Shown here piece by piece: positions 1,103-59,250 of a stretch of DNA of 64,000 nt. The position numbers were made by a program, and so were the translations under genes. Position 1 is the first letter of the stretch. Every line of letters starts with the position of its first letter. The notes under the pieces were generated by a model. That model ran no database searches. It saw nothing but the letters and a program-made list of their open reading frames with translations, and had not been told where the DNA came from. This DNA is from a virus, in the IMG/VR virus record IMGVR_UViG_3300016471_001132, positions 64,001 through 128,000 of that record; one strand, 5' to 3'.

Positions 1103-1126
1103 AGTTGGCTCCTATTGGAACCGTAT

Positions 1127-1740: not shown

Positions 1741-2168
1741 CGGATATCTCCTATGTATTTGGCCACTACTTGGGCTAACTGAGCATGTGTATCATTGAAC
1801 CAGCCTTTAACATGATAGTCACATTTCGCTGGAGGTTCAAACATACGGTTGGTATCTTCGAATCGACCTTCCTTGATGGTGTCCATCCAGATCACATAAT
1901 CAGCGTTAAACTGTTCTCGGGCTTTTTCTGTGGGGCAGACGAAATCTGCTACAGCGATCTTTCCGGCTTTGACCACACCGTCTGCGAGATACTTCATTCG
2001 CATGGCTTGGCGCATACGACCTTCGGGGCTGAAATCCCAATCGCTGTATTCTTCACGGATCTGATCGGCATTGAGCCATACTCCGCCGATCAGTCGGGCA
2101 AACGGTTCGGCTAGTGTTGATTTTCCGGACCCAGGAAGACCCATGATAAGGATGCGTTTTATCGTCAT
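1737..2168 (-). CDS. cysC: Adenylyl-sulfate kinase-like P-loop kinase
   Basis: GLPGSGKST Walker A, NADQIR, DFSPEGR, FVCP, FEPP; lid region is shortened. Confidence 0.65.
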   Translation of the reverse strand: MTIKRILIMGLPGSGKSTLAEPFARLIGGVWLNADQIREEYSDWDFSPEGRMRQAMRMKYLADGVVKAGKIAVADFVCPTEKAREQFNADYVIWMDTIKEGRFEDTNRMFEPPAKCDYHVKGWFNDTHAQLAQVVAKYIGDIR

Positions 2169-2169
2169 G

Positions 2170-3138: not shown

Positions 3139-3156
3139 GATTTATCCTTTAAGTGT

Positions 3157-3738
3157 TTATTGTTTTAAACAACACACAAGGGTGTCTGCGAGACTGCTGG
3201 ATGGTGTTATTGCTTGTCCAAATGTGGACTCAAACCAGAGAGATGAAACGTGGTGCCAGGCAAGATTATGCTTTTGGCTGAACTGGAATATTGCAGAGTT
3301 CATCTGCGTTATTTCCGATAACATATTTACACTGTCGCGATAGTAGGGTCGATAATCTGGATGTTTGATCCCAAACCCACCGGCTTCGTGCCACCAAGCA
3401 TAGCAAGCCAGATCGGGTCTATAGACCATGGCGATCCAAGCATCAGGATAGCGTTCACGGATCTCATCGAGATGGTAGCACCATTCATGGCTTTTCAACA
3501 AGCGTGTGCCTTGGGTATGCTGGTAAGGCGCATCAAGGTTATCTTCGTCCAAGCTGATGTCATGTTCCCATCCTGTGCCAAAATACACACCCAGATGCCC
3601 TGTGAAATCGTGATGCTGATAACTGCGATCCGGTGTTCGATCGGTTGTGTTGAAGTTGCCGGCCCTTTCGATATCTTGAGCGATGCCGCTCCACCTGCTA
3701 CCGGGGGCGCCCACTAGGAATACTTTATCGGGCAACAT
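3157..3738 (-). CDS. Sulfotransferase-like / P-loop-like protein
   Basis: N-terminal VFLVGAPGSRWS loop, LKSH motif; close to the APS-kinase-like gene. Confidence 0.45.
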   Translation of the reverse strand: MLPDKVFLVGAPGSRWSGIAQDIERAGNFNTTDRTPDRSYQHHDFTGHLGVYFGTGWEHDISLDEDNLDAPYQHTQGTRLLKSHEWCYHLDEIRERYPDAWIAMVYRPDLACYAWWHEAGGFGIKHPDYRPYYRDSVNMLSEITQMNSAIFQFSQKHNLAWHHVSSLWFESTFGQAITPSSSLADTLVCCLKQ

Positions 3739-14130: not shown

Positions 14131-17100
14131 TTATGCGTAATTGTTTAGCCAGACCACGGCGTTGCCTGAATCGTTGTTCCAGGTGACACTGCTCAATCTA
14201 ACGTTGCGCCATATGATCACAGGATTGGGCGTGGGTGGCGGCGGCCCAGGTATGGTTGGGGTGGGATCGATGATATTGATCTTGGGGAACAACAGGTATC
14301 GATCAAAATCATCTGTGCCGGTGTATTGATCAGCAGGACTGACGAAGGCTGTGCTGCCACCATCAAACACCGTGGGTGTCCTTGCTGTGCTATTAGTGTC
14401 CAGTTGGTAAGTGCTGGAGATCTGATTGATAGCCACTGTGGCATTGGCAGGCAAAGCAGCACCTGCAAAAATAGCTGGATTGGCACCCGAAGCCGTGCGG
14501 ATAATCACACTGTTTGGCGGGTCGATCTGCTGCCAATAATATCCGTCGGAGATAGCTGTTCCGGCCGGCACATCTCTCAAGCTGCGATAGTAAAGTCCCC
14601 CGGTGGTCACTGTGGCATAGGTGCCATAAGAATCCAAAGAGTTCCAATCTCTGATATTGGTTTCTGGAATACCTCGGCTGTAACTCAGTTGCCAACTGTT
14701 GCCAGTTGTGCCGGACTTCCAGTAAGGGATCACAGTGCCATTGACAGTGACCACCAACTTGCCCGTGCCTGACTGGGCTTGGAATCCCCAGGCTTCGGTG
14801 ATACCGTCGGCAGTGTAAGAATTGACCTGCACCACTTGCCCAGTGGTATTCAAAGAAAAAATATTGTCTCTGTACTGGAATTGAGTGTGTAAATCAAAAG
14901 TAGTGGCAGCAGGCGCTGAGCCATCGGGCGATAGCCAAGTACCAATGGCAGGATCCCAAAGATAAGTCTGACTGCGATCCAGTTCATAACGATCGGCTTT
15001 GAAGTCAATCTTATTGAGTTGATCACCAAATCTCGTGCGGATGTTGTATGCAACCCTGTCACCTTGCCCGGGCTGCAGATAAGCTATGACCCAGGCCGGA
15101 GTGAATCCCAATGTGCGGCCGTCACTCTGCTGGCTGGTCATCCACAGAGGCAGCGCAGGTGTAAGGGGTGGAGATATCTGTCCCACGACCGAAACCACTT
15201 GATCTCGCATGTTTATGAGACTGTTGGGATAGACAACACTTATCTCTGTGCTGTCTCCTTGGTTGATGGGATAAGGCAGCGTGACCTCTTTGCCCACGCT
15301 CTCGCCTTCGTTGTTGACGAGATCGTCGATGATAGATGAATACACCACATCATAGATGTAGTTGCCTGCACTGTCAATGGCTCGAGCTGTGCGTATCTCT
15401 CCCAGGGTTAGATTCTTCCAGTAATGATTTAGCTCCAGGCTTTCAACATACTCTTCCAGTGCCACAGCATTCAGTCCATAGGCATGATCATAGACCACGT
15501 CCGCTGCCACACCAAAATTGGGGTCATCAGATCGGTAAACCAAGGCATTGGGTATGATCTCTTGATTCTGTACCAACTGTTCGATCAGAGCACGATCATC
15601 CTCAGGCGGCATTGCCTTGATGTAGAGTTTCTGATAGGGTTCATTGAAATACCGCACGACTTTTATGCTGAACCTGCGGAACACACTGATGGCGTTGTTC
15701 ACCGACCTAGTGGTTATGGTTGCGGTAGCTGTGACTCCTGCGCCACCTCCCCCGCTGAAACTCACTGTGGGCGGTGTGGTGTATCCATTGCCAGGATTGC
15801 CCACAGTGATGGCAGTGACCACTCCGTTTTCTATCACTGGCGTACCGGCTACTGCACCCGATCCTCCCCCGCCGGTGATGGATATAAACGGAGATCCGCT
15901 GTAACCAGATCCACCAGAGGATAAGTTTATTGCCGTTATAGCTCCTGAAACTATCGTGGCGCTGCTGACAGCTACACCTGTTCCACCACCGCCTATGATG
16001 ACCACTGAGGGTTGGCTGGTGTAACCAGAGCCGCCCGACGACACAGGTATGCTGGTAATGACCCCGTTGCTGATGGTAGCAGTGGCAGTGGCCTGCAAAG
16101 CACCATCCACTGCTGAAGGAGCAGACAGCGTGACTGTGGGCGCAGTGGTATAACCTGATCCACCAGAGACGATATTGATGCCACTGACTTCATAGTTGAC
16201 CTGCTCGGTCTGGGCCGCAAATGCGTTCACTGTGAAATGATATTCGCTGTCAAAGGTAGTGTCTCCTGCATCTATGGTCGTTTCACCTTGATCCAGCGCG
16301 AAAGTTATAAAACTCACACGGCCGGTGATGTGCCCCGACGGTTGCAGAGTAAGTCCCTGCGGCAATCTGCTGTCGCTGCCGCTCTGCAGCTGATAAGTCA
16401 GCGCTCGTCCACCTCGGTTGACTGCGGCCACTGCCAAGGTAGAGATGCTGCCATTGAGGATGCTGCCGAGGTCGGGGTCAGTCAACCAGGTTACCTCGGT
16501 ATTGATATTACCAGTGATGGTCAGTGTGTAATAGTAGAAGTCGGAGATCACAGTGGGATCACCGGCTTTGTAAACGCGAATGGCAAATTGATAAGTGAAT
16601 TCTGTGGCGCCTTGGTCAGGGATGTAACCTGTGAGCCATCCTGTGGTTTGATTTAGCGTCAGCCCCGGGGGCAAGCTCTGGCTGCCACGGTCGAATCCTT
16701 CTCCGTCTCTATCAAAACTGCCCGGACCTCCAGTCACTGTACCAGCATCAAAGCCAATGGCGGCACCAGTGGTGATAGTGTATTCTATGGTATCGCCATC
16801 AAAATCAATGGCTTCGAACTGGAAGGCGAAAAATCCACCCGATCTGACTGTGCCCAGACTGCCTGCTGGCGTGATGATCACTGGTGTGCGGGTGGGTATG
16901 GCATCAGCAGTGATGAATGTGTTGTCGGCGGTAAAGTCAGTGGTATCAGCTGTGAGACTATCTGAACTGTAGACAAAGATCTCATAGGTCCGTATGGCAC
17001 CAGGATCTTCTACCGTGGTCAGGCTGCCGCCTATCTTCAAAGTAAATTGATAGTTCTTGCTGGCAGATCGTGTGGAGAAATCCCAAGGGTACACATCCCA

Positions 17101-17673
17101 GTTGGTAGCATCCCAGCCCGCTGGAGCAGTCCCGGGCGGACCCACCAAGGGTTCAATCACGCCGGAAATCAAACCGGTGCGGCTTACAGTGAGTCCAGGC
17201 GGTAACTCACCATACAGCAATTCTATGTTAGGACTCTCGTTCTCGTCCAGTCCGGTGTACTCTATTTGGACTTCAGCGGCCCGCCCATCGAAAAAAGTAC
17301 CTACATTTCCCGCAGGTGTGACGAATTCAGGATCATTGCGATCTATGACTGTGAGTTCAAAAGTGCGGTCATTGATGCGATCTACAAGGATCCGACCGTT
17401 GACCGTTCGTGTGGTGTAGGCACGGATGGCGAATCTGCTGGTGACATCGCGTGCCACATCTGCTGGTACACCTTGTACGCGGGCCACAGTGCTGGGCACA
17501 CCTTCGATCACACCATTGGTGTTGATTTGTACACCTGCGGGCAGTTCGCCGGCGATGAGTCGGAAATATACTATTTCACCCTCGGCTTCGGCGGTCACAG
17601 GAGTGCTGTAAAATTGCCCTTCGGGTATGCTACCCAGGCTGCCGGCAGGAGTGATCCATTGTGGCTGGGCCAT
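14131..17673 (-). CDS. Baseplate wedge-type structural protein with Ig-like (putative Ig) domains
   Basis: Repeated W-x-T-P-A-G-x-L-G and LPxGLxLxxxG motifs; internal GGSGYT-x-x-P repeats; 1180 aa. Confidence 0.7.
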   Translation of the reverse strand: MAQPQWITPAGSLGSIPEGQFYSTPVTAEAEGEIVYFRLIAGELPAGVQINTNGVIEGVPSTVARVQGVPADVARDVTSRFAIRAYTTRTVNGRILVDRINDRTFELTVIDRNDPEFVTPAGNVGTFFDGRAAEVQIEYTGLDENESPNIELLYGELPPGLTVSRTGLISGVIEPLVGPPGTAPAGWDATNWDVYPWDFSTRSASKNYQFTLKIGGSLTTVEDPGAIRTYEIFVYSSDSLTADTTDFTADNTFITADAIPTRTPVIITPAGSLGTVRSGGFFAFQFEAIDFDGDTIEYTITTGAAIGFDAGTVTGGPGSFDRDGEGFDRGSQSLPPGLTLNQTTGWLTGYIPDQGATEFTYQFAIRVYKAGDPTVISDFYYYTLTITGNINTEVTWLTDPDLGSILNGSISTLAVAAVNRGGRALTYQLQSGSDSRLPQGLTLQPSGHITGRVSFITFALDQGETTIDAGDTTFDSEYHFTVNAFAAQTEQVNYEVSGINIVSGGSGYTTAPTVTLSAPSAVDGALQATATATISNGVITSIPVSSGGSGYTSQPSVVIIGGGGTGVAVSSATIVSGAITAINLSSGGSGYSGSPFISITGGGGSGAVAGTPVIENGVVTAITVGNPGNGYTTPPTVSFSGGGGAGVTATATITTRSVNNAISVFRRFSIKVVRYFNEPYQKLYIKAMPPEDDRALIEQLVQNQEIIPNALVYRSDDPNFGVAADVVYDHAYGLNAVALEEYVESLELNHYWKNLTLGEIRTARAIDSAGNYIYDVVYSSIIDDLVNNEGESVGKEVTLPYPINQGDSTEISVVYPNSLINMRDQVVSVVGQISPPLTPALPLWMTSQQSDGRTLGFTPAWVIAYLQPGQGDRVAYNIRTRFGDQLNKIDFKADRYELDRSQTYLWDPAIGTWLSPDGSAPAATTFDLHTQFQYRDNIFSLNTTGQVVQVNSYTADGITEAWGFQAQSGTGKLVVTVNGTVIPYWKSGTTGNSWQLSYSRGIPETNIRDWNSLDSYGTYATVTTGGLYYRSLRDVPAGTAISDGYYWQQIDPPNSVIIRTASGANPAIFAGAALPANATVAINQISSTYQLDTNSTARTPTVFDGGSTAFVSPADQYTGTDDFDRYLLFPKINIIDPTPTIPGPPPPTPNPVIIWRNVRLSSVTWNNDSGNAVVWLNNYA

Positions 17674-22255: not shown

Positions 22256-22794
22256 AGTCTTTCGTTGCACACATCCCAGTCGATGATGCGCCAGATATTA
22301 TCAAGATACTTTTCTTTGTCCCATTGGTAGTCAGTGGCCCAAACGTGCTCCCACCAATCAATAAGCACGCAGATATCTGTCCTGACTGCATGATTTTTTA
22401 TGGTCTTGATCTCGCCCCCTGTGGATAGATATACCCACCCTGATCCTTGTATCTTCATGGCTACCTCTTTGACAGCATCTTTGAAATCATCAAAGTTACC
22501 AAACTTGTCTTCGATCAAGGCAAGCACAGCGCCGCGGGGCAGATTACGGCCTTTGGGTGGTCTAAGTTGTGGGAAGAACTTGTTGTGCAGGAAACTGCCG
22601 GCGCGGTTGAAGTCGGCATCTCCTTCGCCGGCATTGTAGCGTTTGGCATAACCTTTGGCCAAGTGCTCATAATGATAGTTGATGCTGTCTCGGCTGAGCA
22701 CAGGATCTAACGCATCCTCGGCATAGGGCAAGGGGGTAGTTTCCAGTTTCTTTTCTCGAGTAGTAGCCTCGATGAGATCTATATGTTCGCGCAT
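22252..22794 (-). CDS. sod: Fe/Mn superoxide dismutase with an extra N-terminal leader
   Basis: LPY..DAL.P, metal ligands H (YH), H (FLHN), DWWEH; TAAATA 22800-22805. Confidence 0.9.
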
Positions 22795-22802
22795 AAACAT
22801 AT

Positions 22803-23021
22803 TTATTTCCGGCGGGTGATACGCCCACGAGTGACATCATAAGGAGAGAATTCTATCTCTACCCTATCGCCCAGCAATATCTTGATGTTGTGCTGTCGCA
22901 TCTTGCCCGAGATCACTCCCAGCACCACATTTTCAGTATCGTCTATCCGTACACGGAATGTTGCGTTGGGCAGTATCTCTACTACCTCGCCTTCCATCTT
23001 AAAACCTTCTTCTTTAGCCAA
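22803..23021 (-). CDS. infA: Translation initiation factor IF-1
   Basis: [17 protein letters not shown]...ISGKMR...I.IL.GDRV.IEFSPYD..RGRI. Confidence 0.95.
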
Positions 23022-34803: not shown

Positions 34804-35358
34804 TTATACCCGGTATACTTGGCAACCGTTGATTATCAAGTGTTCGTGTGCCGGCAGTGTGGCCAGATCTTTTTCTTCGACCAGGATGGCATCATGATTG
34901 GGCTTGCCTCGATCGATCCAACGCTGCCTACGGGCCATCAAACAGCCTTGTACCAGTTGGATGCCTGCATTAGAAGTCACATCCCACAATCTCACTAGGT
35001 GCAAGTTGTCTTTTCGACGAACAGCGAAGATGTATCTGTCATACTGCAGTTTGCCCTGGGCATGGAATTGGAAACCAGCGCGGCCCACAGTGCCTTTTTT
35101 GGCTGGTTTGACCGTGGCGCATTTCTGCTCAATCGCCACGCCGCCGCTCATGGCATCCTCTCCATTGCGATGGAAGTTGGTATTGTAGTCAGGGTCGTAT
35201 TGGCTGACTATTTCCCAGATGCTCAACGAACTCAGTGTGTCATTGGCCAGGATGTCAATTTCATGAGCAGTCCAAACCGAGTTGTGCTCGGCGAAGATAC
35301 GGTCCCGGGTCTGGATGAGGTCTTGTATGGCTTGTTTAGATAGGTATTTTCCTGACAT
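34804..35358 (-). CDS. Putative PD-(D/E)XK restriction-endonuclease-like protein
   Basis: G-E-D-A...I-E-Q-K core; adjacent to the methyltransferase; promoter 35365-35393. Confidence 0.55.
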   Translation of the reverse strand: MSGKYLSKQAIQDLIQTRDRIFAEHNSVWTAHEIDILANDTLSSLSIWEIVSQYDPDYNTNFHRNGEDAMSGGVAIEQKCATVKPAKKGTVGRAGFQFHAQGKLQYDRYIFAVRRKDNLHLVRLWDVTSNAGIQLVQGCLMARRQRWIDRGKPNHDAILVEEKDLATLPAHEHLIINGCQVYRV

Positions 35359-35364
35359 TCTACG

Positions 35365-35393
35365 ATTATATCACAATTGCATTATTGTGTCAA
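35365..35393 (-). promoter_or_regulatory. sigma70 promoter, leaderless geometry
   Basis: TTGACA-N17-TATAAT; ATG 7 nt past the -10 box. Confidence 0.85.
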
Positions 35394-44517: not shown

Positions 44518-44563
44518 TCTTCCGTTTGATTGACCACCCAGCCAGTGGCCAATAAATATCCAC

Positions 44564-45751
44564 ATGGATTGTAAGTTCAGCACCAATGGACTGGCTATTG
44601 ATTATTTTGGCACAGTCAAGCCCTGTTGTCTATTCCAATACGATAAAAATTTCCAGGACCAAAACAACATCAAAGATCTGGATGTATCTGGCTGGCATAA
44701 ATCTGAAAAAATCATCAGCATTACAAATTCTCTCGCCCAGAACCAGTGGCCAAAGGAATGCGGATTCTGCCAGCATACCGAGGCCAACGGCCGCGGCGAC
44801 AGCATGCGATTAAACGGTCTCTCTTCGTATGGGCATTATTCATCTCAAGACATAACCTTGGAAATCCGGGGAGGATCCACATGCAACTTTGCATGCCAGA
44901 CATGTTGGCCGCAGGCAAGTTCGCGCGTGGCAAAATTTTATCAGCAAGCCAAAATCCAGTTTACTCCCCCAGATAACATGGATTGGGATTTCCACCAACT
45001 GGATTCGGTCAAGCACAGGTTGAGGAATATAGTTTTACTCGGTGGAGAACCTTTCTATGACAAAAGATGTCTTGCGTTTCTAAAATGGTTGCTGACAAAT
45101 GATGTCCGTGCAGACATCACTGTCTTCACCAATGGATCAATGATCGATTGGCAATTTTTAGAAAGATTCAAAGGAAGAATCACATTGGTATTCAGCATTG
45201 ATGCCATTGGCAAACCTGCAGAGTATATTAGATTTGGAAGTGATTGGAGCACAGTTAAAAAAAATTACGATTTGTGTCGCTCGCGGACCGAGGTCGCCAC
45301 CAGGATAAACATAACTACCTCTCCTTACAATTACTTGTATCTCGAAGAGTTATTGAATTGGATCAGTCGAGATTGGCCGGAAGTGGTGTCATTTGGTCGT
45401 GCAGCAGAATCCAGAAACTCCATATACATGGACGAATCAATTTTCCGCGTCGAACAAAGAAGCGAAATCATCGAGAGTCTAATCCGGGCACAATATTTGT
45501 TGAAAGATAGCAAGATCGAAAGCATGCAAAAAATCAACGCTGCCAATGCGATTGGCAGTATCATCAAAAATCTGCGTCAGATGCCTTACAATGACGCTAA
45601 TCGTTTACAATTTGAAAAATTTATCGCTGACATGGACCTGATCAAAAAAATCAACATCAATGATTACTGTCCGGAGTTGGCCAGATATTTCGACATCAAT
45701 CCAACCATATTGGACAAGGTCTCTTCTGAATTTTTTGAATCTGATATATAG
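44564..45751 (+). CDS. Radical SAM protein with N-terminal SPASM/twitch-like Cys cluster
   Basis: C...G.VKPCC...C..C then CNFACQTC, GGEPF, FSID; TAAATA 44553-44558. Confidence 0.88.
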   Translation: MDCKFSTNGLAIDYFGTVKPCCLFQYDKNFQDQNNIKDLDVSGWHKSEKIISITNSLAQNQWPKECGFCQHTEANGRGDSMRLNGLSSYGHYSSQDITLEIRGGSTCNFACQTCWPQASSRVAKFYQQAKIQFTPPDNMDWDFHQLDSVKHRLRNIVLLGGEPFYDKRCLAFLKWLLTNDVRADITVFTNGSMIDWQFLERFKGRITLVFSIDAIGKPAEYIRFGSDWSTVKKNYDLCRSRTEVATRINITTSPYNYLYLEELLNWISRDWPEVVSFGRAAESRNSIYMDESIFRVEQRSEIIESLIRAQYLLKDSKIESMQKINAANAIGSIIKNLRQMPYNDANRLQFEKFIADMDLIKKININDYCPELARYFDINPTILDKVSSEFFESDI

Positions 45752-46848
45752 TTCAAAAGATTTGGGTCGTTCTTTGATATGAGTTTTTTGCTGATGTCGC
45801 TGTCTAAGATTTGCTTGATCCCATCAGACTTGGACAATCTCAGAAATAACTTGAAAATTTCAATATCTCTCAAAGGCGTAAATGTCAACGTGTTGCCAAG
45901 ATGCCAGTGTTGACAATCATTGGCGACAATATTGCACAAATAAGTCGCGAACTTCTCAAAACACATGCTATTCAATTCATCGTCTTTTTCTTGTTGCTCG
46001 AAAAGATTGATGTGTTTGTGCTGCAGGAAATAATCTCTGTGCAAGGTATTCGGATTTTTTTGTAGTTCATCTAGTATATTGGTGCCGTGATACTTTAACC
46101 ATAGATTTGCTGTCACTGGACTTCTTAACATGAATTCATCTCCAGGAGCTCCGCTGGACAAGACACAGGGATCTGTCCAATGATGAATCTGACTGTATCC
46201 CCAAAAATTTTGTTTCAAGCGGCATTGGTTACGACACCAAAATTCATCCCACTCCACATGCTGTTGAAAAATCATTTGATATCGATCAGTGCTGGCCTTG
46301 ATGTAACTGAAAACCAACATGCTATCAATGCCTCCAGAGCAAAAAACTTTTAGAGGTAATTGATTATGTTGCAGAAATGCTCGAGTGCGGCGCGTGAGAA
46401 TATTATGTACTGTGTCAATGAGCTGATCGACTTGCAAAGTTTCTGTTTCGACCTTGCCAATGATGTCTATCTTACGCTCGGACATCTGTAAATCTTGATC
46501 TACACTTATGGTGCTGTCTGCCCATATTGTATATCCTTCTGGGAATAAATTAGACAATGACTTCTGGTCATGCCAAATTGTAAACCCTCTATAGAGATTG
46601 GTCTTGATCTCTATGTTTTTTGATACAATGTCATAATCAAAGATACAAAAATTTCCTGTATGTTCTTGATCCTTTATATAAGACAAACTGTCTTTGATGT
46701 ACGAGTCATCTATGTAACCTTTATACACAAAGACATGCCCATCCTGTTCCAGTCTGTGCCAACCTGCATCGGTATTAAGGATGAGATTGCCCAATGGATG
46801 ATGATATGGGAATAACAGATTGGTCGACTTGGACAACGAAAAAAACAT
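45664..46848 (-). CDS. Asparagine-synthase-like PP-loop ATPase (degenerate Ntn domain)
   Basis: VFCSGGIDS, SGAPGDE, FTPL motifs; no N-terminal Cys. Confidence 0.7.
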   Translation of the reverse strand: MFFSLSKSTNLLFPYHHPLGNLILNTDAGWHRLEQDGHVFVYKGYIDDSYIKDSLSYIKDQEHTGNFCIFDYDIVSKNIEIKTNLYRGFTIWHDQKSLSNLFPEGYTIWADSTISVDQDLQMSERKIDIIGKVETETLQVDQLIDTVHNILTRRTRAFLQHNQLPLKVFCSGGIDSMLVFSYIKASTDRYQMIFQQHVEWDEFWCRNQCRLKQNFWGYSQIHHWTDPCVLSSGAPGDEFMLRSPVTANLWLKYHGTNILDELQKNPNTLHRDYFLQHKHINLFEQQEKDDELNSMCFEKFATYLCNIVANDCQHWHLGNTLTFTPLRDIEIFKLFLRLSKSDGIKQILDSDISKKLISKNDPNLLNYISDSKNSEETLSNMVGLMSKYLANSGQ

Positions 46849-49395: not shown

Positions 49396-49423
49396 ACCTT
49401 CTACTTACCGCGGTAAATACAGG

Positions 49424-50956
49424 ATGCGTGACATATTAGACAAACTCGACGGCATCACAGAAGCCACTCTGGAACCCAGCCAGATCATCAAATACCCTGA
49501 ACGATTTGATGCATTCATTTCACACATACAAGACCGACGCCCTTTTTACACTGACAAAGAAGGCACCGAAGTGATACTGGATCCCAGAGAAGCAGCACGA
49601 TTCTTAGATCTCCGTGAAAAAGGTCTTTTCCGGGGCGGTCTCAAAGGTCGAGATCTCCAGGGGAACGAATGGCCACTTAGCAGTTTCCGCAAAACAGCTG
49701 AATTCGGTGGTGCCAGCGCCAAGCCCGGTGAAGAAACTGATCCCACTAAAGTCAAAAAAGAAGGAGCTGCTCTCAAGCCGAGCCAGATAGCTATCACTGA
49801 TAAAAACATACCTATCAAAAGCCTGGGCAAACTCATAGTGCAAAATCCTGTATTAGAAAGCACCGATTACGGTCGTGCTGTGATTGAGATGGCACAGCAG
49901 ATCATGGCCGGGCAGGCTGCAGTGATCCCTGAAGAATTCCGCAAGAACGAGCAAATCAAAAAAGCCATCGTGGACTATGCAGGTGAATATCTAGGAGTGA
50001 TGAGTCTGTACTATGACACTTCTGAGTGGTTAGGCAGTGGAGATAAAAAAGCTGGATTTACTCAGTGGTTGGGAGGCGACATTGGTAGTTTAATAGTAAA
50101 CTTTCCCAGCGAGTCTAATACTGCGCTGGCCGATAGCTTCGCTGAAATCAAAAATGCCAAAACTGGCCATACCGTGTCGATCTCAAGTAAAGGTACCGGA
50201 GGAGGTGCACCACCAAGCATATCAAGCCTAAAAGTTCCAGAACATCTCAAAAGCAAACCCGAATACGAAACTGCCATCGACATCATAGAGCTTTGTAGCA
50301 ACAAGTCGATCCCCAATCCTAAGACCATAAGCCAAGTATTTCTAATGATGAACCTGCTGCATGAACGCATCCCTAATAAGATACCCAAACAATTCAATAA
50401 ATTCTTGCCATGGTCGCGCGATATCGTAGATCAGGTACAAAACAGTCTCAAGAACGGTACGGCCATGCCCAAATACCAAAGCCTCTTTGCTGACCTTGAC
50501 AGCAAAGGCAGCGACGGTGGCAAACTCACTTATGTGACCAAGACCGCAGTGATGAACATGGTCAACGGTGGTGAAGTTCCTGGATTCGAAGCAGTGGTCT
50601 TAGAGATACTAGATTATAACTTCATACAACAGTATGCCACTTATCAAGGCAACAAGACCGGAATAGTGGCTTTCAGCACACAGTGGCCAGCCAAGCTCGA
50701 TGGTCGTGTGACCATGGAAAGCAAGAGCGGTGGCACCGATCCTACCAAAGGCGGGTTCAGTTTCAAGCTCAGCCCCAAGAATGCACCTATGCCCACAGCG
50801 GACGAACTCATGGGCGACGATGAGAAACTAGACTTGCCCACTGCTAGTGCCGGGCCCGAAGGTGATCTGTCTGATTACGAGGCACCGAGACCAACAATAA
50901 AAGCTCGTAGAGAGCCTCGGGGTGATGTTAGTGCCCTAGGACGCAAACGTCGTTAA
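49424..50956 (+). CDS. Large late protein, possible PD-(D/E)XK-like nuclease / head-internal protein
   Basis: TAAATA 49414-49419; leader MRDILDKLDGITE; P-S-E..N..LADS...ISISSKG. Confidence 0.55.
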   Translation: MRDILDKLDGITEATLEPSQIIKYPERFDAFISHIQDRRPFYTDKEGTEVILDPREAARFLDLREKGLFRGGLKGRDLQGNEWPLSSFRKTAEFGGASAKPGEETDPTKVKKEGAALKPSQIAITDKNIPIKSLGKLIVQNPVLESTDYGRAVIEMAQQIMAGQAAVIPEEFRKNEQIKKAIVDYAGEYLGVMSLYYDTSEWLGSGDKKAGFTQWLGGDIGSLIVNFPSESNTALADSFAEIKNAKTGHTVSISSKGTGGGAPPSISSLKVPEHLKSKPEYETAIDIIELCSNKSIPNPKTISQVFLMMNLLHERIPNKIPKQFNKFLPWSRDIVDQVQNSLKNGTAMPKYQSLFADLDSKGSDGGKLTYVTKTAVMNMVNGGEVPGFEAVVLEILDYNFIQQYATYQGNKTGIVAFSTQWPAKLDGRVTMESKSGGTDPTKGGFSFKLSPKNAPMPTADELMGDDEKLDLPTASAGPEGDLSDYEAPRPTIKARREPRGDVSALGRKRR

Positions 50957-51604: not shown

Positions 51605-52654
51605 TTATCTAGGGCATTGATTACCCGGAACCGCAGTGACTTCTGCCCGATCGATGTTTTGTATGGCCAGATTCTGTGTATTGACCAGCAAATTATAGGT
51701 TTTCCTGTGACCAGGCAGCAATTTCACACGTCCACCGCCCACTTCTACATAGTACCAAGGAGCGTAGGAACTCTGGCTTATTTCTGGTAGATCAAAACAG
51801 TCGCGATACACAGCCCGACCCGCAGAATCCATCAAACTCATCATCAGCATGGGACGCACAGAGACCATGGCTTTGTCAAAAATCCAATAGGTAGTCTCGT
51901 CATCGAAATAGGCTTTTTCACTGCCTATCATGACTTCTAGCCTGGCACGGCAATTGGACAGCCAGCTGTTGCAATCCGGGCGTGGATTCACCGTCTTGAC
52001 TGCTTCAGCCAAGCTGGCGGTAAACTTGGAATTCCATGCCACATGTACCGGGACCTGCAGGAAGACCACTCTGTTGTCGGCCAAGACCCGAGTCTGCCCC
52101 ACCGAGATGTCAAACGCTCGAGCAGGAAAATCAGCCAACACCGCTGACAGCACACGATCTGCACCTTGTTTCTCTCTGTGGAAACTGTCGATCTGTGCGG
52201 ATATCCTGCCACCTTCCACACGTCCAGCGTCACGACTCTCGCTTAACAGCCGATCTGCTATGCCAGATTTTCGCACCCACACATCGATGTCGATTGAGAC
52301 CCGCTGCCCATCATACTGGCGATCCACGATCTTGAAATCGTGTATGTGACCGGAACTGTAGTTGATGATCTCGTTACGGCGCACTTCACCATCTCTGACA
52401 TTGGTATGGCTCAGTAGTAGGCTACCCACAGCCTGTTCCACTGCCAATCGGAAGGCTTGATCTCTGGCATCTTGCTCGTCTCGCCCCACTGCACGGACCC
52501 GGACATGATAGACTTCTTCTCTGTCCATCATGACCCATTGGCCGATCTGCAAAACTATGGTCAACGGGCTGGGAGCCCAGAAGGACGGAGCAGCCTGCAC
52601 AGGTGATGCCAGAAGACCAGCTATCACCAAGGCACACAAACCACGCTTCATCAC
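51605..52654 (-). CDS. Exported protein with LPP20/FlgT-N-like domain
   Basis: Signal peptide (VQA); G...ARDQAFRLAVEQAVG...EII..SSG.I..F. Confidence 0.6.
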   Translation of the reverse strand: MMKRGLCALVIAGLLASPVQAAPSFWAPSPLTIVLQIGQWVMMDREEVYHVRVRAVGRDEQDARDQAFRLAVEQAVGSLLLSHTNVRDGEVRRNEIINYSSGHIHDFKIVDRQYDGQRVSIDIDVWVRKSGIADRLLSESRDAGRVEGGRISAQIDSFHREKQGADRVLSAVLADFPARAFDISVGQTRVLADNRVVFLQVPVHVAWNSKFTASLAEAVKTVNPRPDCNSWLSNCRARLEVMIGSEKAYFDDETTYWIFDKAMVSVRPMLMMSLMDSAGRAVYRDCFDLPEISQSSYAPWYYVEVGGGRVKLLPGHRKTYNLLVNTQNLAIQNIDRAEVTAVPGNQCPR

Positions 52655-53289
52655 TTCATCCGGTTGCGGATGAATTCAGCGGTGGCCTGGTCTTTCTCGC
52701 TCCATTGATACACTGCTACATACAACTTGCCGTCATCTCTGGTACCCTCACGGATTTTGCGTACACCAATGAGCCGACCCTGTGAAGTGATTGACGTGAT
52801 AGTGGTGATCACGGTATTGTCTACACGCTCTGCGATGCGCCTGCTGGTGTTGTCAGATGAGCCGCTGGCATCTTGGCTAAGTTCAGCTTCTGTGAAACTG
52901 ATGGTACCATCGGCGGTCTTGAACTTGTTGAGAGTGTTGTCTTGGGCTTTTTCCAGGGCCTTGCCGATGATCTTGATCCGTCGTTCGGTCTTGGTATTGT
53001 CGCCATACAAGAACTGTGTGAGCTTGGCTTTGGCATCTAGTTCAGCCACCACAGCAAACTGCCCTTTCCAGGCCGGTGCCACGCCCGTGACTTCGATCCG
53101 ATCCAGATTACCCATGAGGGTGTAATAGATTTTGACGCCGGCATCTTCAAATTCCGTGGCCACTCGCTGATCCTTGACGGGTGTGGTGGTGTCACTAGGT
53201 GGTGTCATCCCAGTCTGGGTATTTTTATTGAACACACCACAACCCGTCAAGGCAGTGGTCAGAGCCAAACATACCAATGTCTTCTTCAT
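52651..53289 (-). CDS. Lipoprotein (LPP20-like)
   Basis: Lipobox LTG-C; A...A...L.QFL and L.GVR motifs. Confidence 0.7.
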   Translation of the reverse strand: MKKTLVCLALTTALTGCGVFNKNTQTGMTPPSDTTTPVKDQRVATEFEDAGVKIYYTLMGNLDRIEVTGVAPAWKGQFAVVAELDAKAKLTQFLYGDNTKTERRIKIIGKALEKAQDNTLNKFKTADGTISFTEAELSQDASGSSDNTSRRIAERVDNTVITTITSITSQGRLIGVRKIREGTRDDGKLYVAVYQWSEKDQATAEFIRNRMK

Positions 53290-53417
53290 TGTCTTCCCTT
53301 TCCGGCTATCATGCCGCCTACACTTTTGAGATCATCACCGGCACCCGATAGAGCACCGCCCAAGGTACCACAAGCCGTCAAGGCCATGGTGACCAGCAAT
53401 ACAGATAGATACTTCAT
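53286..53417 (-). CDS. Entericidin EcnA/B-like 43-aa lipoprotein
   Basis: Hand translation MKYLSVLLVTMALTACGTLGGALSGAGDDLKSVGG; GGAGG SD; ATGA coupling. Confidence 0.65.
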   Translation of the reverse strand: MKYLSVLLVTMALTACGTLGGALSGAGDDLKSVGGMIAGKGRQ

Positions 53418-53446
53418 CGGGTCCTCCGACTTTTGAACATAGTGTA

Positions 53447-53475
53447 ATATTAAAGGAAATGACTTTATTGGTCAA
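53447..53475 (-). promoter_or_regulatory. sigma70 promoter of the lipoprotein operon
   Basis: TTGACC-N17-TAATAT. Confidence 0.75.
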
Positions 53476-53480
53476 CCAGC

Positions 53481-53891
53481 CTATCGCTGGGCATTTTGGG
53501 CAGCATCGCCTATAGGATCAAATTGGACACCTTGTGCTACCAAATTCACAGCAGTGGAACCTATCACTTCGGCCGCTATTCGTCGGTCGCTTTTGGCTTC
53601 TCCACCACAGTTTTGGGCGATTCGTCTAGCGTCAAGATGATCTTTGGTTTCCATTCCGGCATTTCCAACCAAAACAGGAATTAGTAGTGTGCCGCCGCTG
53701 GCTATCACTGCCAATGGACTGGCGATCATACGCATCATTTTATAGTCGTCGTTGGGTTTGGCTTCCTTCACCGGAAGCTGACATTTCAGAGTGCGATAGT
53801 CATCATTGTGTTGCAGGCTTTGCGCGGTACGAGTGCTATGGCTAGCACAGCCGGTTAGAATCAAAAGAGGTAAAAGAAAAATCCCACGCAT
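53481..53891 (-). CDS. Lipoprotein
   Basis: Lipobox LTG-C; promoter TTGACA-N18-TATAAT (53898-53927), ATG 7 nt downstream. Confidence 0.7.
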   Translation of the reverse strand: MRGIFLLPLLILTGCASHSTRTAQSLQHNDDYRTLKCQLPVKEAKPNDDYKMMRMIASPLAVIASGGTLLIPVLVGNAGMETKDHLDARRIAQNCGGEAKSDRRIAAEVIGSTAVNLVAQGVQFDPIGDAAQNAQR

Positions 53892-53934
53892 ACTGTAATT
53901 ATAGTATGGGTGGGATTGGATTGTCAACCGCTAT

Positions 53935-54337: not shown

Positions 54338-54718
54338 ATGGCCTGGACCGCTACCCTAAACATCGTCAACGATACAGCATACAATCTCACAGTAAACCAC
54401 AACACCGTGGGCGATCTCACTACCATCGCTCCCGGCGGCAACTGGAGCTACACCACATCTGATCCCAACAACACCAACGCTCTGCGTTTTTGGTCTGTGC
54501 CCAATCAGTGGTACATGCAGGGTTCAGTGGCCTATGGTCCATTGGCCGGTGTGTACATGGATCGTGGCTGGATGGCCCCAAACGATCAGACCATCCGCTT
54601 GGATGCTGATGTCAACGGGACCACTTTCACTCAGACGGAGAACGGTGGTGCAACGGTGGTGCCTTGGAACGGATTCGAATCCGGTGGCACCATCGACATG
54701 AAGTTTTCCAAGATTTGA
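54338..54718 (+). CDS. All-beta protein of unknown function (aegerolysin/lectin-like pattern)
   Basis: GGAGG SD; alternating beta pattern, Trp/Asn/Thr-rich; N-terminal LNIVNDTAYNL. Confidence 0.55.
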   Translation: MAWTATLNIVNDTAYNLTVNHNTVGDLTTIAPGGNWSYTTSDPNNTNALRFWSVPNQWYMQGSVAYGPLAGVYMDRGWMAPNDQTIRLDADVNGTTFTQTENGGATVVPWNGFESGGTIDMKFSKI

Positions 54719-54734
54719 CGGTAAATACTAGACT

Positions 54735-55082
54735 ATGAACATCCGCGAAGTCTTAGACAAGTTGGACGAAATTAGCCGTAGAGATTTCCTCAAAGGTGCT
54801 GGTGCGGCAGCAGCTGGTGCTGCTCTATCTTCGATGCCGAAAAGAGCTCAAGCCATGACTTCGGCAAATTGTCAACCTCCCAGTATCCAGGACCAGATAC
54901 GCAATGCCGTGCGATCGGGTGCAGTACCTCAAGGTAATCGTTATTCGGCTCAGGTCAGAGCCGGATGGGTTTATGTTGTCTATGTCGACAATAAAACCTA
55001 TGACATCAGTCACCAGATTCCTCAATGCGGCAAACAAACCATGAAGGCCGCGGAGGAAATAGGCAGACTGATGGGTAATTAA
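54735..55082 (+). CDS. Late protein with N-terminal leader plus twin-arginine (Tat) signal
   Basis: TAAATA 54722-54727; SRRDFLK, Gly/Ala h-region, AQA cleavage site. Confidence 0.7.
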   Translation: MNIREVLDKLDEISRRDFLKGAGAAAAGAALSSMPKRAQAMTSANCQPPSIQDQIRNAVRSGAVPQGNRYSAQVRAGWVYVVYVDNKTYDISHQIPQCGKQTMKAAEEIGRLMGN

Positions 55083-55786
55083 ACCGTCCGGACCTGGGCC
55101 AAGCCTAGTTCTTCCAGCCTGCGAATGTAGAAGTAGCCTAGATCAAACTCCCACCACTTTTGACTGAGTTTCGCACTGGCTGGATCGTCGTGATGGTTGT
55201 TGTGTAATTCTTCACCACCGATGATGATGCCCCAAGGAAAAATGTTGCGGCTACAATCCTTGGTGTTGGTGTTGCGATAGCCCCACCAGTGTCCCACACC
55301 ATTGACCACACCTGCGGCCCAGAATGGAATCCAAGCCATCTGCACCAACCACATGACCAGTCCCCAGCCATTGAACAGAGCCACTTGGATGATCAACAAA
55401 GACAAGTATCCCATGTTGGGATAACGGCTATAGACATTACGCTCTATCCAGTCATCGGGCGTGCCTTTGCCGTACTGCTCGATCATCTTCTTATTGCGTG
55501 TAGCGTTGGCATATAACCAAGCACCAGCGAACAACACTTTGAGGATACCATGCACCTGTGGGCTGTGTGGATCTTGTCGTGTTTCGCAGGCCTGATGATG
55601 CTTGCGATGTATGGCCACCCATTCTTTGGTGACCATTCCAGTAGTGAGCCATAACCAGAAACGCATAAAGTGACTGATTGCAGGATGAAGTTCCACTGCT
55701 CGGTGTGCTTGGCTCCTGTGTAGGAAAATGGTTACACTTGCGATAGTGATGTGTGTCATCACTAATACGATTACTAATTCTAACAT
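55079..55786 (-). CDS. Acyl-CoA (delta-9-type) fatty acid desaturase
   Basis: His boxes LHRSQAH, HRKHH, ELHNNHH; WWEFD.G. Confidence 0.92.
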
Positions 55787-55926
55787 GTTTTACTCCTTTG
55801 GCAGCGTTGGCTGCAGTATTTCACTTGAGGCCAGTCTCTCGACCACTTACGCCTCCAAGTGAATGGTCTCCCGCACGTTTCACATGTTTTGGTAGGGAGA
55901 CTCTTTTTATTCCCTGGCCAGGTCAT
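55780..55926 (-). CDS. DUF2256-family Zn-finger protein
   Basis: [18 protein letters not shown]...W..VKYCS.RC. Confidence 0.85.
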
Positions 55927-56555
55927 ACTCCTGCGGCCAACACTATTTTGCAGATATGTTCCAATCGCTCGATGTGTTCGAATGCACGCCAAGGCGACGT
56001 GTCTATGGCCACTACTCCGTGGCCTTTGATGCCGATGATGTCGGCAGCGGTGAATCCGTGTGAGTTTAACCCAAAACTCTCAAAGCTCCTGTCAGCTAAC
56101 TCTTGGCTTATGGGAGGTACCTCTCCTACGTTGGGGCCTACTCGGGTATACCTACTGAGTTCAGGAAAATCGTGGGCCAGTTCGGCTAACTCAATACCAC
56201 GATGCATGGCAGCTACACAGTATGTGGGATGCAGGTGAACCACCACACGCACATCTTCAGCATGTTGTCCCATACGGCGTTGCAGTCCAAAGTGCAAAGG
56301 TATTTCGCCCGAGGGCCGAAGTTCTGCACTGATTGCGGTATAGCTCATCTCCTGCCATAAGGGTACAGGACCATCAATAATTTTTATCTTCTTGAACTGA
56401 TCGGGTTGCAGAGTCTGTTTGCGTACCCCTGATGGTGTGATGTAGAAGTGATCGCGATCGTGATGACGGATCGAAACATTACCATCGCGGCTGGTGATCC
56501 AGTTTCGACGATAGCCTTCTATCAAGGTTTCACAAATGGTCTCAAGCACGGCCAA
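55923..56555 (-). CDS. Class II aldolase/adducin family protein
   Basis: DGNVS, ITPSG, PSGE...H, VHLHP, GHGV. Confidence 0.9.
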
Positions 56556-57759
56556 TCTCCTCTGCTATGATCTCTGCGGTACCAGCGCCCAAGGTCCAGC
56601 CCAAGTGTCCATGGCCAGTGTTGAGCCAAACACCATCTCTGCGGCCTGGCTTGATAAGGGGCATCATGCTGGGTGTCATGGGACGGAGTCCTGCCCAGGG
56701 ACGGCAATCTTCAGTGCTGACACCAGGAAGATTCCGTTCCGTCCAACGCAAGAGTGGATCAATCCTGTCTCGGCGTATGTCCAAGTTCCAGTCATCCAGT
56801 TCTGCTGTGCCTGCTACTCGCAGTCTGTTGCCCAGGGTCGATGTCACAATCTTAGCAGCATCGTCTAACAGGCTTGTCACAGGTAAGCAAGAGGGATCCT
56901 GTACCTGTAGTGTGATAGAGTAGCCCTTGACTGGGTATACAGGGATGCTCTCACCAAACATCTTTCCAGTTTCCGCAGCACGGCTGCCGGCACATATCAC
57001 CACATCTGTGTACTCATACCAGTCAGTGATGTAATCACTTTGGATATGCACGCTCCACTTGTTGGGCAAGCGCCGGGCTTCTTTCACACTGGCACGGTAG
57101 CGGAATCGGACTCCGCGGTCTCCTAACCAGCGTGCCAGATTGGCTGTGAACTTGTGTATGTCACCCATGCCATCTGTGGCAGTATAGGTTCCGCCGATGA
57201 TGGTGGAGTCTTGTTTCAGTGCTGGTTCGGCATCAAACACACCATCTCGATCCAGGATCTCTCGATGCACACCGGCCATCTCGTACAAATAGCAGGATCG
57301 TTTGGCTGATTCAAAATAGTTGGCATCACGATAGATGTGCAGGATGCCAGTTTGGCTGTGATCAAACTTGATGCCAGTGGCCTTCATGATGTCAGCATAT
57401 GCTTCGCGACTCCCTAGTCCCAGTTCGATGGTTTTAAGTGTGTTGGTTTCATATCGACCCATCACGGTGTTGGCCATGAATCCGGCTATCCATTTCAACT
57501 TGGGCAGGCTGGGATAAGGACGGAACAACAGTGGGGCATCTTTCTGCCACATCCATCGGAAACCTTTTTTGACATTCGCCCAAGTGGTCCAAACTTCGCT
57601 GTTTGAAACACTAAGTTGTCCACCATTGGCATAACTGGTCATCATGCCAGCATAGCGTTCGGCTTCTATCACTGTGACATCATAGCCTCGCTTGTAGAGA
57701 CTGTAGGCTGTGGTTACGCCGGTGATGCCGGCTCCAATTACTAGTATCTTTTTAGTCAT
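56542..57759 (-). CDS. dadA: D-amino acid dehydrogenase (FAD)
   Basis: GAGITG, SYANGGQLS, YPVKGYSIT, LRVAGTAE, GLRPMTP, NTGHGHLGWT. Confidence 0.9.
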   Translation of the reverse strand: MTKKILVIGAGITGVTTAYSLYKRGYDVTVIEAERYAGMMTSYANGGQLSVSNSEVWTTWANVKKGFRWMWQKDAPLLFRPYPSLPKLKWIAGFMANTVMGRYETNTLKTIELGLGSREAYADIMKATGIKFDHSQTGILHIYRDANYFESAKRSCYLYEMAGVHREILDRDGVFDAEPALKQDSTIIGGTYTATDGMGDIHKFTANLARWLGDRGVRFRYRASVKEARRLPNKWSVHIQSDYITDWYEYTDVVICAGSRAAETGKMFGESIPVYPVKGYSITLQVQDPSCLPVTSLLDDAAKIVTSTLGNRLRVAGTAELDDWNLDIRRDRIDPLLRWTERNLPGVSTEDCRPWAGLRPMTPSMMPLIKPGRRDGVWLNTGHGHLGWTLGAGTAEIIAEEIGRA

Positions 57760-57924
57760 AATCAGATGATAGCATGACTGCGATCAACCCGCAACCTATG
57801 GCTATTGCTCCAAGATTAGTATATATGGGATTGTAGTTTAAACATCTCATAGCCGTTTCCACGCAGAGATATTCGCCTGCCAGCAGCAGGATTCCAAACA
57901 ATATGGTCAGGAACCCTGCGTACC

Positions 57925-59208
57925 TCAATGGAACTGTTCTTCTTCGGTGCTACCTTTGAGAGCCTGTGTGGAGGCGTTGGCTTCGATGGTAGTTGTGACA
58001 GCATCAAAGTAGCCGGTACCAACTTCACGCTGGTGCTTGACTGCTTCAAAACCTCTGCTGGCGTCTGCGAATTCACGCTGTTGCAGATTCACGAATGCTG
58101 TCATGCCTTCTCTGGCGTATCCGTGTGCGAGGTCGAACATGCCGTGATTGAGTTGATGGAAACCAGCTAGAGTGATGAACTGGAACCGGTAGCCCATGGC
58201 ACCCAGTTCTCTTTGGAAGCGGGCGATTTCATCATCGTTGAGATTCTTCTTCCAGTTGAAGCTGGGGCTGCAATTGTAGGCCAGCATCTTGCCCGGGAAC
58301 TGTTGATGGATGCCTTCGGCAAACTTGCGAGCAAACTCCATGTCAGGCACACCAGTCTCGCACCAGAGTAGGTCGGCATAGGGTGCGTAGGCCAAGCCAC
58401 GTGCTAGGGCTTGGTCGAAGCCTTTGCGGGTGCGGTAGAATCCTTCAACAGTGCGTTCGCCTGTGAGGAAGGGTCGGTCGCGATCATCAATGTCTGATGT
58501 AACCAGGTCGGCTGCTTCTGCATCAGTTCTAGCAAGCAATACAGTAGGAACGCCAAGCACGTCAGCAGCAAGACGAGCAGCAGTGAGTTTGTTGATGGCT
58601 TCTTGAGTTGGTACAAGTACTTTTCCTCCCATGTGTCCGCATTTTTTCACGGACGCTAATTGATCTTCGAAGTGTACGCCCGATGCGCCGGCTTCGATCA
58701 TGGCCTTCATGAGTTCAAATGCATTGAGCACTCCACCAAATCCGGCTTCGGCATCGGCCACGATGGGCGCGAAGAAGTCGGTGTCACCGTGGCCTTCCAT
58801 CCACTGGATCTGGTCCGCACGTGTGAAGGTGTTGTTGATTTTTTTCACCACTGCCGGCACCGAGTCCACGGGATACAGGCTTTGGTCGGGATACATCTCG
58901 CCGGCTGAATTGGCATCACCGGCCACTTGCCAACCGCTCATGTATATGGCCTTGAGTCCGGCCTTGACCTGTTGCAGAGCCTGCATGCCAGTCATGGCAC
59001 CCAATGTATTCACATAGTCTTCAGTCTGCAGCAGTTTCCACAGTTTCTCAGCCCCACGGCGAGCCAGGCTGTGTTCCACAGGATTGCTGCCTTGCAGTCT
59101 GACCACCTGGTCGGCTGTGTATTCTCGTTTGATGCCATTCCACCGGGGATTGGTGCTCCAGTCCTGCTGGATCTGATAGGCTTTCCAACTGCGGGTTTTT
59201 TCACTCAT
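57925..59208 (-). CDS. aceA: Isocitrate lyase
   Basis: [65 protein letters not shown]. Confidence 0.97.
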
Positions 59209-59230
59209 CTTGCTCTCCATGTTTGTCAGG

Positions 59231-59250
59231 TATTTATTGCGATGCAATAA
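59231..59250 (-). promoter_or_regulatory. PhaR-type palindrome plus late promoter box of aceA
   Basis: TTATTGC-ATC-GCAATAA (59234-59250; 7-bp arms) overlapping TAAATA (59231-59236). Confidence 0.65.

Follow-up and report, generated by a model that had tools for sequence, protein, structure and literature searches.

A small late-type gene of an uncultured giant T4-like phage places a putative capsid-targeting leader in front of a predicted Tat signal

The target gene and its predicted protein

The window, the whole stretch of DNA analyzed here, is 64,000 nucleotides long and corresponds to bases 64001-128000 of an IMG/VR record that is 136 kb long and bears the label provirus. Read from the sequence, the target gene is a short ORF encoding a protein with three consecutive parts, preceded by a promoter-like box. 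The features of the locus are as follows:

54722..54727, + strand: TAAATA box, T4-late-promoter-like, 7 nt before the ATG with no Shine-Dalgarno sequence between
54735..55082, + strand: whole ORF, 115 aa plus stop; identical protein on record from 6 contigs
54735..54770, + strand: putative capsid-targeting propeptide, leader M1-E12 (MNIREVLDKLDE), ending in L-D-E; family consensus MKTLREYIDQLDE
54771..54854, + strand: predicted Tat signal peptide, I13-A40 (SRRDFLK, Gly/Ala h-region, basic c-region, AQA), matching Pfam PF10518
54774-54794, + strand: SRRDFLK motif, S14-K20, located in the sequence
54855..55079, + strand: mature 75-aa domain, predicted alpha-beta3-alpha, pLDDT ~90 over residues 50-110; relatives P0028, P0031, P0063, and P0029

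We regard the gene as real because the identical protein is carried by 6 contigs on record, full-length relatives exist, and the mature domain is predicted with a pLDDT of ~90. An earlier note on this DNA had placed the start of the feature at 54722, but that base is non-coding, being the first of the TAAATA box, and the ATG lies at 54735.

The leader of the target is 12 residues long and acidic, with LDE at its end. Behind it, the h-region (G21-S33, GAGAAAAGAALSS) is composed of Gly and Ala and is weakly hydrophobic, and the c-region MPKRAQA provides 2 basic residues and the A38-Q-A40 site, which is followed by M41; the peptide GAGAAAAGAALSSMPK is part of this signal region. The Pfam TAT_signal profile (PF10518) aligns to residues 12-31 with 36.8 bits against a cut-off of 22.7, and its E value of 3e-9 puts the match far beyond chance. 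The S-R-R-x-F-L-K motif, Gly/Ala h-region, and A-x-A site described in the earlier note are therefore borne out by SRRDFLK, AQA, and the Pfam match, as is its domain of roughly 75 aa with two Cys, which corresponds to M41-N115 with Cys47 and Cys98. On these grounds we predict, with high confidence, that the target contains a functional Tat signal. Within the record itself, no TatC was found, and the only TatA-like match was below threshold.

Tat n-regions as long as the stretch ahead of this RR pair do occur in nature, TorA and DmsA being examples. The target resembles these bacterial Tat substrates in its S/T-R-R-x-F-L-K motif, Gly/Ala h-region, basic c-region, and AxA site (PMC13673990), and in having about a dozen residues ahead of the RR. 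It differs from them in that the stretch before the RR is acidic and is a separate tag common to proteins with no signal, in that the cargo lacks a cofactor-type domain, and in that the gene is viral. The uncut n-region, M1-R16, contains 4 basic and 4 acidic residues for a net charge of ~0, whereas after a putative cut at E12 it would be reduced to I-S-R-R with a net charge of +2. Tat n-regions carry a net positive charge (PMC13673990), so the shift from ~0 to +2 that such a cut would bring fits this requirement.

A late-promoter-like box close to the start codon

The T4 late promoter has the sequence TATAAATA, which TAAATA resembles. With the box 7 nt before the ATG and no Shine-Dalgarno sequence between them, the target would be read from a near-leaderless late transcript. 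TAAATA also lies 4-7 nt before the ATG of the family members on metagenome contigs L004 and L009. Across the record, an ORF of at least 60 aa starts within 60 nt after TAAATA at 42 of 57 sites, and the ATG of such an ORF falls within 8 nt at 14 of the 57; for non-overlapping control hexamers, an ATG lies within 8 nt at only 0-9% of sites. Among the genes with such close spacing are the target, the MKTLREYINLIE gene, a superoxide dismutase (SOD), and one for a polyprotein of 1608 aa. In large structural genes, tail-fibre-like ones included, TAAATA lies 15-23 nt upstream and is accompanied by a Shine-Dalgarno sequence. Examples of close TAAATA-ATG pairs are found at 54722-54737, 22794-22805 (-), 49414-49426, and 44553-44566. 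A spacing of 4-7 nt between TAAATA and the start codon, with no ribosome-binding site, is shared by many late-type genes and implies leaderless or near-leaderless late mRNAs in this phage. The target, like the structural genes, stands under a late-promoter-like box.

The gene lies in a giant phage genome

The CheckV completeness of the record, 39%, implies a genome of ~350 kb. The neighbors of the target look cellular, comprising a fatty-acid desaturase, a class II aldolase, an FAD oxidoreductase, an isocitrate lyase, ClpP twice, and three radical-SAM genes. A host flank beside a provirus was considered and rejected: relatives of the desaturase occur on at least 596 viral contigs, the longest of which has 349,369 bp, and L004 and L009 have the same neighborhood with a family member beside the desaturase. 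These two contigs keep the desaturase, a phasin-like gene, the lipoproteins, and ClpP, and each has a different leader-plus-Tat protein next to the desaturase. On another contig, L007, a family member adjoins a major capsid gene of T4 type, which has 65% identity to its counterparts in PA5oct-like jumbo phages, and in the window positions 14134-17673 match T4-like baseplate and virion families. In tblastn searches of 50,697 phage records, the desaturase returned nothing and a 1062-aa protein returned short tail-end matches only. The target gene thus lies inside an uncultured giant T4-like phage and not in a host flank.

The immediate surroundings show that the slot occupied by the target is variable. 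On contig L014, whose desaturase is 75% identical, the 126-aa gene that lies upstream of the target abuts the desaturase directly and the target gene is absent. The target is therefore a small insertion-or-deletion cassette that has a promoter box of its own and may or may not occupy the fixed slot. The 126-aa gene itself (54338-54718, +), conserved in L014, has no leader and no Pfam or PHROG match.

Two other gene groups nearby deserve description. At 51605-53927 (-) four exported proteins are encoded. One, of 349 aa, weakly resembles FlgT_N and has a signal-peptidase I signal; the other three, of 212, 43, and 148 aa, are lipoproteins whose lipoboxes read L-T-[GA]-C. This cluster is conserved next to the phasin-like gene and ClpP in L009, L056, and L092, which makes it a phage-encoded envelope module. 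At 55079-59247 (-) lie the desaturase, the class II aldolase, the FAD oxidoreductase, which is DadA-like, and the isocitrate lyase with its own TAAATA; these metabolic genes probably caused the 'provirus' label of the record.

A family with one leader, one Tat module and many cargoes

A HMMER scan of 1.84 billion representatives returned 73 clusters at E 0.001 or better, nearly all of which match residues 1-45 of the query only. Together with two word-based searches, this gave a set of 96 proteins, 89 of which have the order leader, LDE or IDE, and ISRRDFLKGAGA (I-S-R-R-D-F-L-K-G-A-G-A). The joint before ISRR is LDE in 88 of the 89 and IDE in the remaining one, and in 85 it begins at residue 10-11, so that the Tat module is near the N-terminus. 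Positions M1, R4, L10, D11, E12, I13, R15, R16, and D17 are invariant in an alignment of 43 sequences. The target fits this frame, with MNIREVLDKLDE followed by ISRRDFLKGAGA, and its MNIREVLD leader variant is also found in P0002, P0003, and P0030. Between L004 and L009 the first 25 residues are identical despite ~13 synonymous codon differences, indicating that selection acts on the peptide. The possibility that the leader is a nucleotide-level start signal is unlikely for the same reason, many synonymous differences under an identical peptide.

DNA pattern scans recovered few members, 1 in IMG/VR and 3 true ones in JGI metagenomes; the remaining loci from these scans were ordinary bacterial Tat proteins and were set aside. 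A tblastn search with P0008 against 50,697 phage records returned nothing, so that no cultured relative with the family was found there, and the Tat module is patchy even among related phages, with 0 matches in 4 of 5 related records.

Once signal and tail are trimmed, the cargo cores of the 89 proteins fall into ~35 groups unrelated by blastp. Three members (P0021, P0039, and P0092) have TonB_2/TonB_C/TolA-like cargo above the Pfam cut-off, which is a domain type of the periplasm. The largest cargo group is a beta-rich domain (P0008; pLDDT ~88), the best match of which, Bartonella IalB (E 0.11, TM 0.38-0.49), is weak and serves as a lead only. Exposure to a head protease might have left [LI]xE motifs depleted inside the cargo cores; the difference, 70 observed against 80.9 in shuffles (z -1.3), is too small to be informative.

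Around 58 of the 89 members also have a conserved C-terminal tail of ~16 aa behind a second [LIVM]xE joint, which reads LEE, VDE, LDE, or VAE. The tail takes the forms ..PDAVKRIEQLVQYK, ..DPISKIDRLFRDA, ..SPDAVKRIEQLVQYK, ..EDPISKIDRLFRDA, and ..DPI[AS]KIDRLFRDA, and it could act as a second propeptide, anchor the protein to a scaffold, or mark it for degradation. The target is without a tail, as are 31 of the 89 members, and the tail is thus a frequent feature of the family, not a defining one.

The breadth of the cargo bears on a suggestion of the earlier note, that the protein might jam the Tat translocon. In that case it would engage the host translocon without being released and so shut down host Tat export. 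A strong Tat signal is the sole point in favor of such jamming. The AQA cleavage site is a normal one, a small, soluble domain that is predicted to fold well would be an easy Tat substrate, and dozens of unrelated cargo domains, including ordinary periplasmic ones, argue for delivery and not blockage. The suggestion finds no support in these observations, and we consider it highly improbable.

The mature domain and its relatives

AlphaFold, supplied with five sequences, gave the target a pLDDT of ~90 over residues 50-110, arranged as a helix, three strands, and a helix. Searches with the mature domain yielded nothing at E 0.001 or better with Foldseek against the PDB, a best Z of only 2.9 in a wide VIA-align comparison, and no usable match in the ESM Atlas. 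The target had no match among PHROGs profiles, and a word search with its residues 41-115 matched the protein itself alone. According to these models, the 75-aa domain would fold confidently yet resembles no known fold.

Four proteins, P0028, P0031, P0063, and P0029, are true relatives of the mature domain. They keep a leader of the MKTLREY- or MRAAEFITE-type and have no RR; where the target has its RR, they have EG[LIW]K-SALAGAALAG..AxA, a segment that looks Sec-like or SAR-like. At the other end, the target stops at ..GRLMGN, where P0028, P0031, and P0063 run on with an [LV]xE joint and a tail. Cys47 and Cys98 are not conserved in these relatives, and a conserved disulfide in the target was rejected for this reason. 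The earlier note had proposed a survey of homologs for joint conservation of the leader and the RR motif, and the outcome is divided: the two are conserved together throughout the leader family, but the RR motif itself is not conserved among the mature-domain homologs, all four of which lack it. Judging by these sequences, the cargo type of the target always sits behind a leader and an export-type hydrophobic segment, and the same cargo type appears to occur behind either a Tat or a Sec-like segment.

The RR-less segment, [DE]EG[LIW]KSALAGAALAGAMA..AxA, recurs behind [L]xE joints in L097 (G002:C1:179035-182097) and L002 (5707-6588, -). It precedes a GH19 lysozyme and the cargo relatives of the target and is also found inside a polyprotein.

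The leader as a tag separate from the signal

The earlier note had cautioned that long Tat n-regions also occur naturally. That the leader is no more than such an n-region is not borne out, because the leader type also heads proteins in the record that have no Tat signal. A strict leader pattern opens 8 ORFs in the record, among them those of the SOD and of a 125-aa protein, compared with ~0.7 in codon shuffles. Two comparators lie within the window:

22768..22794, - strand: leader MREHIDLIE on a phage Fe/Mn superoxide dismutase, from the Sod_Fe_N alignment; TAAATA 5 nt upstream
49424..49462, + strand: leader MRDILDKLDGITE on a 510-aa protein, sharing LDKLD with the target; TAAATA 4 nt upstream

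In the first of these, position 5 of the Sod_Fe_N profile aligns to residue 20 of the SOD, from which an N-terminal extension of ~15 aa follows; the 510-aa protein has no Pfam family. The 125-aa protein, encoded outside the window (G000 45425-45802, -), combines a MKTLREYINLIE/MKTLREYI-leader start with the family tail at its end and has no signal, so the frame of leader and tail exists without any signal. Conversely, the four conventional envelope proteins at 51605-53927 have plain N-terminal signals and no leader. Leaderless phage Sec lipoproteins in the same locus indicate that the leader is not needed for export as such, and its occurrence on proteins without a Tat signal makes it a separate, general tag. 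In one family member, P0096, a generic MRIDEILTE leader is joined to QELDE-ISRRDFLK.

The closest parallel to this tag is found in the internal proteins of T4, whose propeptides are 10-19 aa long, begin MKT..E[FY]I.., and end in (L/I)-x-Glu (PMC3012670, PMC9026906, PMC8442874). The T4 capsid-targeting sequence (CTS) is MKTYQEFIAE (PMC8442874). In IPIII, residues 4 and 7 govern targeting and residues 8 and 10 processing, with a Glu needed at position 10, where an Asp blocks the cut; T4 Alt is processed at both ends and so also has a C-terminal propeptide (PMC9026906). The family consensus MKTLREYIDQLDE has M, K, T, E, and I in common with the CTS and stays hydrophobic at the two targeting positions, with L4 and Y7 for the Y4 and F7 of the CTS; in the target these are I3 and V6 after a one-residue deletion. 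The family leader likewise ends in [L]xE with a Glu at the CTS cut position, and L10-D11-E12 is invariant.

The family therefore resembles T4 IPI, IPII, IPIII, and Alt in its short N-terminal propeptide ending in (L/I)-x-Glu, in the pairing of a conserved tag with highly diverse cargo, and in the late character of the genes; the second, C-terminal [LIVM]xE joint parallels the two-ended processing of Alt. It differs in that a complete Tat signal follows the cut site, often with a C-terminal tail in addition, and in that the leader is 12-13 aa long, with the putative cut three residues further along than in T4. Packaging has been shown for the T4 internal proteins, whereas for the family we infer it. 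To our knowledge, no T4 internal protein has an export signal, and they act in the cytoplasm. On balance, these sequence comparisons make it fairly probable that the leader is a cleaved propeptide.

Tat modules buried inside polyproteins

The strongest argument for a cut comes, as far as the sequences can tell, from relatives in which the Tat module is not at the N-terminus. A 405-aa protein on L002 has the order MRSNEFITE leader, Cys-rich module, ESEELDE, ISRRDFLKGAGA.., cargo, and DUF6321, and Pfam TAT_signal matches it at residues 119-139, directly after ESEELDE. Genome G002, which is 342,865 bp long, 99% complete, and has the desaturase in common with the target's record, contains two further cases. 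In a 523-aa frame, ..GGELDED is followed by LSRRGFLRG.. at ~residue 215. A 644-aa frame first has a Sec-like module, ..TDLTE then GWKSALGSAALAG.., and ~130 residues after this module has ..EGVAEGSLEE followed by IDRRGFLKG..; the cargo behind this second module is homologous to standalone family members. In all, polyproteins that embed a Tat module were found on L002, L096, and L097, with the modules lying 119-345 residues deep, right after LDE, LEE, or ELDED joints. A Tat signal buried this deep would become an N-terminal signal only after proteolysis at the joint.

Two related observations were made alongside. On L057, which belongs to another desaturase-bearing phage, a 1070-aa protein (217-3429, +) has a buried Tat-like motif at residue 604 with a different junction, ..GVSEDM-TRRGFLRGVGAAALAGAAGAASA.. 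On L012 (1098-1379, -; G000 35098-35379), a 94-aa Cys-rich protein, ..KWSEKYKRSINC..GFSQRAHC.., has an MRAKEFVSE leader; its relatives occur in the T4-like cyanophages S-CAM9, S-PRM1, Bellamy, and P-TIM68, and it is fused ahead of the Tat module in L002 and stands at the end of the L096 polyprotein.

Multi-module proteins of this kind recall the polyvalent proteins of phages and conjugative elements, in which unrelated effector domains are strung together in one long chain and for which Iyer et al. in 2017 proposed processing by a Zn peptidase (PMC5512222), since the relatives of the target place the Tat module in long proteins whose units, bound for different places in the cell, must first be released by processing. 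The target differs in being a single-module gene with one 75-aa domain. The joints of the family are [LIV]xE and QGVAE words, which are not necessarily sites for the Zn peptidase of the polyvalent-protein paper, and that paper does not mention signal peptide, periplasm, or twin-arginine (PMC5512222).

A candidate for the cutting enzyme is the T4 gp21 family of head proteases. Peptidase_S77 is above cut-off in three related records (G001, G003, and G005), all of which share the desaturase and one of which has the most similar desaturase (82%). No Peptidase_S77 was found at E 0.01 or better in G002, the polyprotein carrier, or in G004. Neither Peptidase_S77 nor the Gp23 capsid was found in the 136-kb record, where the controls were silent as well and completeness is 39%.

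If no cut occurs, the leader could instead be a functional extension that stays in place, as a chaperone docking site of the kind recognized by TorD and DmsD or as a mask that delays export, with the C-tail acting as a partner helix or as a degradation tag for a phage ClpXP. Leader and tail are both amphipathic helices, the former acidic and the latter basic, ClpP is encoded twice in the window, and the net charge of ~0, atypical for a Tat n-region (PMC13673990), could damp export. Such an extension is hard to reconcile with the presence of the leader on proteins without any signal, with the internal polyprotein modules, which are preceded by a joint only and no leader helix, and with the target itself, which has no tail; in the AlphaFold model of P0008, moreover, leader and tail do not pack confidently (pLDDT 40-59 for both). 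We consider a retained extension of this kind unlikely.

A proposed path to the periplasm and its main alternative

The target is a clean standalone example of the leader-plus-Tat layout, and it can be viewed as a self-contained late cassette that would combine a T4-type capsid-targeting propeptide, a Tat signal, and a 75-aa soluble periplasmic domain. The precursor would be made late and captured into the prohead by way of its leader. There, a head protease of the T4 gp21 type would cut after Glu12, so that the packaged form would start with I-S-R-R, a minimal and positively charged Tat n-region. The protein would then leave the head with the DNA and refold in the cytoplasm of the new host, the Tat system of which would export it, with signal peptidase trimming at AQA. 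Tat would suit an injected protein because it is strictly post-translational and accepts folded substrates. We infer each of these steps from sequence, from packaging and the cut through ejection into the cytoplasm and export by Tat to an effect in the periplasm, and to the whole chain from packaging to Tat export we would give nearly, though not quite, an even chance.

The main alternative is that export takes place in the producing cell only. The protein would be made late, would not be packaged, and would pass through the Tat system of the same cell, with the leader either kept or removed by a cytoplasmic protease. Its role would then be a late periplasmic one, such as lysis timing, envelope remodelling, or the shielding of progeny from re-adsorption, and the leader and C-tail would serve other ends, for instance in assembly, in regulation, or in keeping the protein stable. 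The Tat signal lacks no part and follows only 12 residues after the N-terminus, and an extension of 12 aa need not prevent Tat export. Four envelope proteins exported in the conventional way are encoded in the same locus, so the phage remodels the envelope from within; the GH19 lysozyme on L002, behind a leader and hydrophobic segment, reads as an endolysin, which is needed in the producing cell; and the head protease was not found in the 39%-complete record. On the other hand, the presence of the leader on cytoplasmic enzymes, the invariance of LDE directly before ISRR, and the function of Tat modules 119-345 residues deep would all be left unexplained, and the cytoplasm would have to contain a protease that cuts with head-protease specificity. 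Confinement of export to the producing cell, with the roles just given, is a serious rival toward which we do not lean, and it is not exclusive with packaging and delivery: even with delivery to a new host, the producing cell probably exports part of the precursor uncut.

Phage proteins that use host export to reach the envelope are familiar, and the target is like the signal-peptide and SAR endolysins and T4 RI, Imm, and Sp in this respect. Unlike the target, these proteins begin directly with a Sec-type signal and are synthesized in the cell in which they act. We know of no protein of the endolysin, RI, Imm, or Sp type that combines a head-targeting tag with a Tat signal.

Extended from the target to its family, the packaging and delivery reading would describe a changeable set of head-borne effectors for the periplasm, in which one cut removes the tag and exposes a Tat or Sec-like signal, and the host exports the ready-made protein in the first moments of infection, before phage genes are expressed. 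We put this forward tentatively, as close to evenly balanced but on the doubtful side. Under such a head-borne effector set, the standalone cassettes and the polyprotein modules would be one device in two forms. A head can carry a few tens to hundreds of copies, which may not suffice for a stoichiometric effect in the periplasm, and superinfection exclusion as the role of the target is a guess.

Implications for phage biology

Proteins that phages inject are known either to work in the cytoplasm or to build the entry channel. In the literature, we found no paper that combines a capsid targeting sequence with twin-arginine, and none of the ten papers listed on jumbo, huge, or giant phages mentions twin-arginine; the terms signal peptide and periplasm are absent from a jumbo-phage overview. 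If true, the onward transport of injected proteins into the periplasm by the host's Tat system would be a new route. It would let a phage alter the envelope before any phage gene is expressed, with shutting of receptors, blocking of TonB- or Tol-dependent uptake, and exclusion of competing phages among the possible effects, and it would offer a natural example of an export signal that is silent until a protease cuts. The family is a ready set of ~35 cargo types to test, and T4-style protein packaging vectors could be made to reach the periplasm of laboratory strains by fitting them with the leader-plus-Tat tag. If export in the producing cell is the right explanation instead, the family would still be a large and so far undescribed group of phage proteins exported by Tat, in which tags at both termini are conserved.
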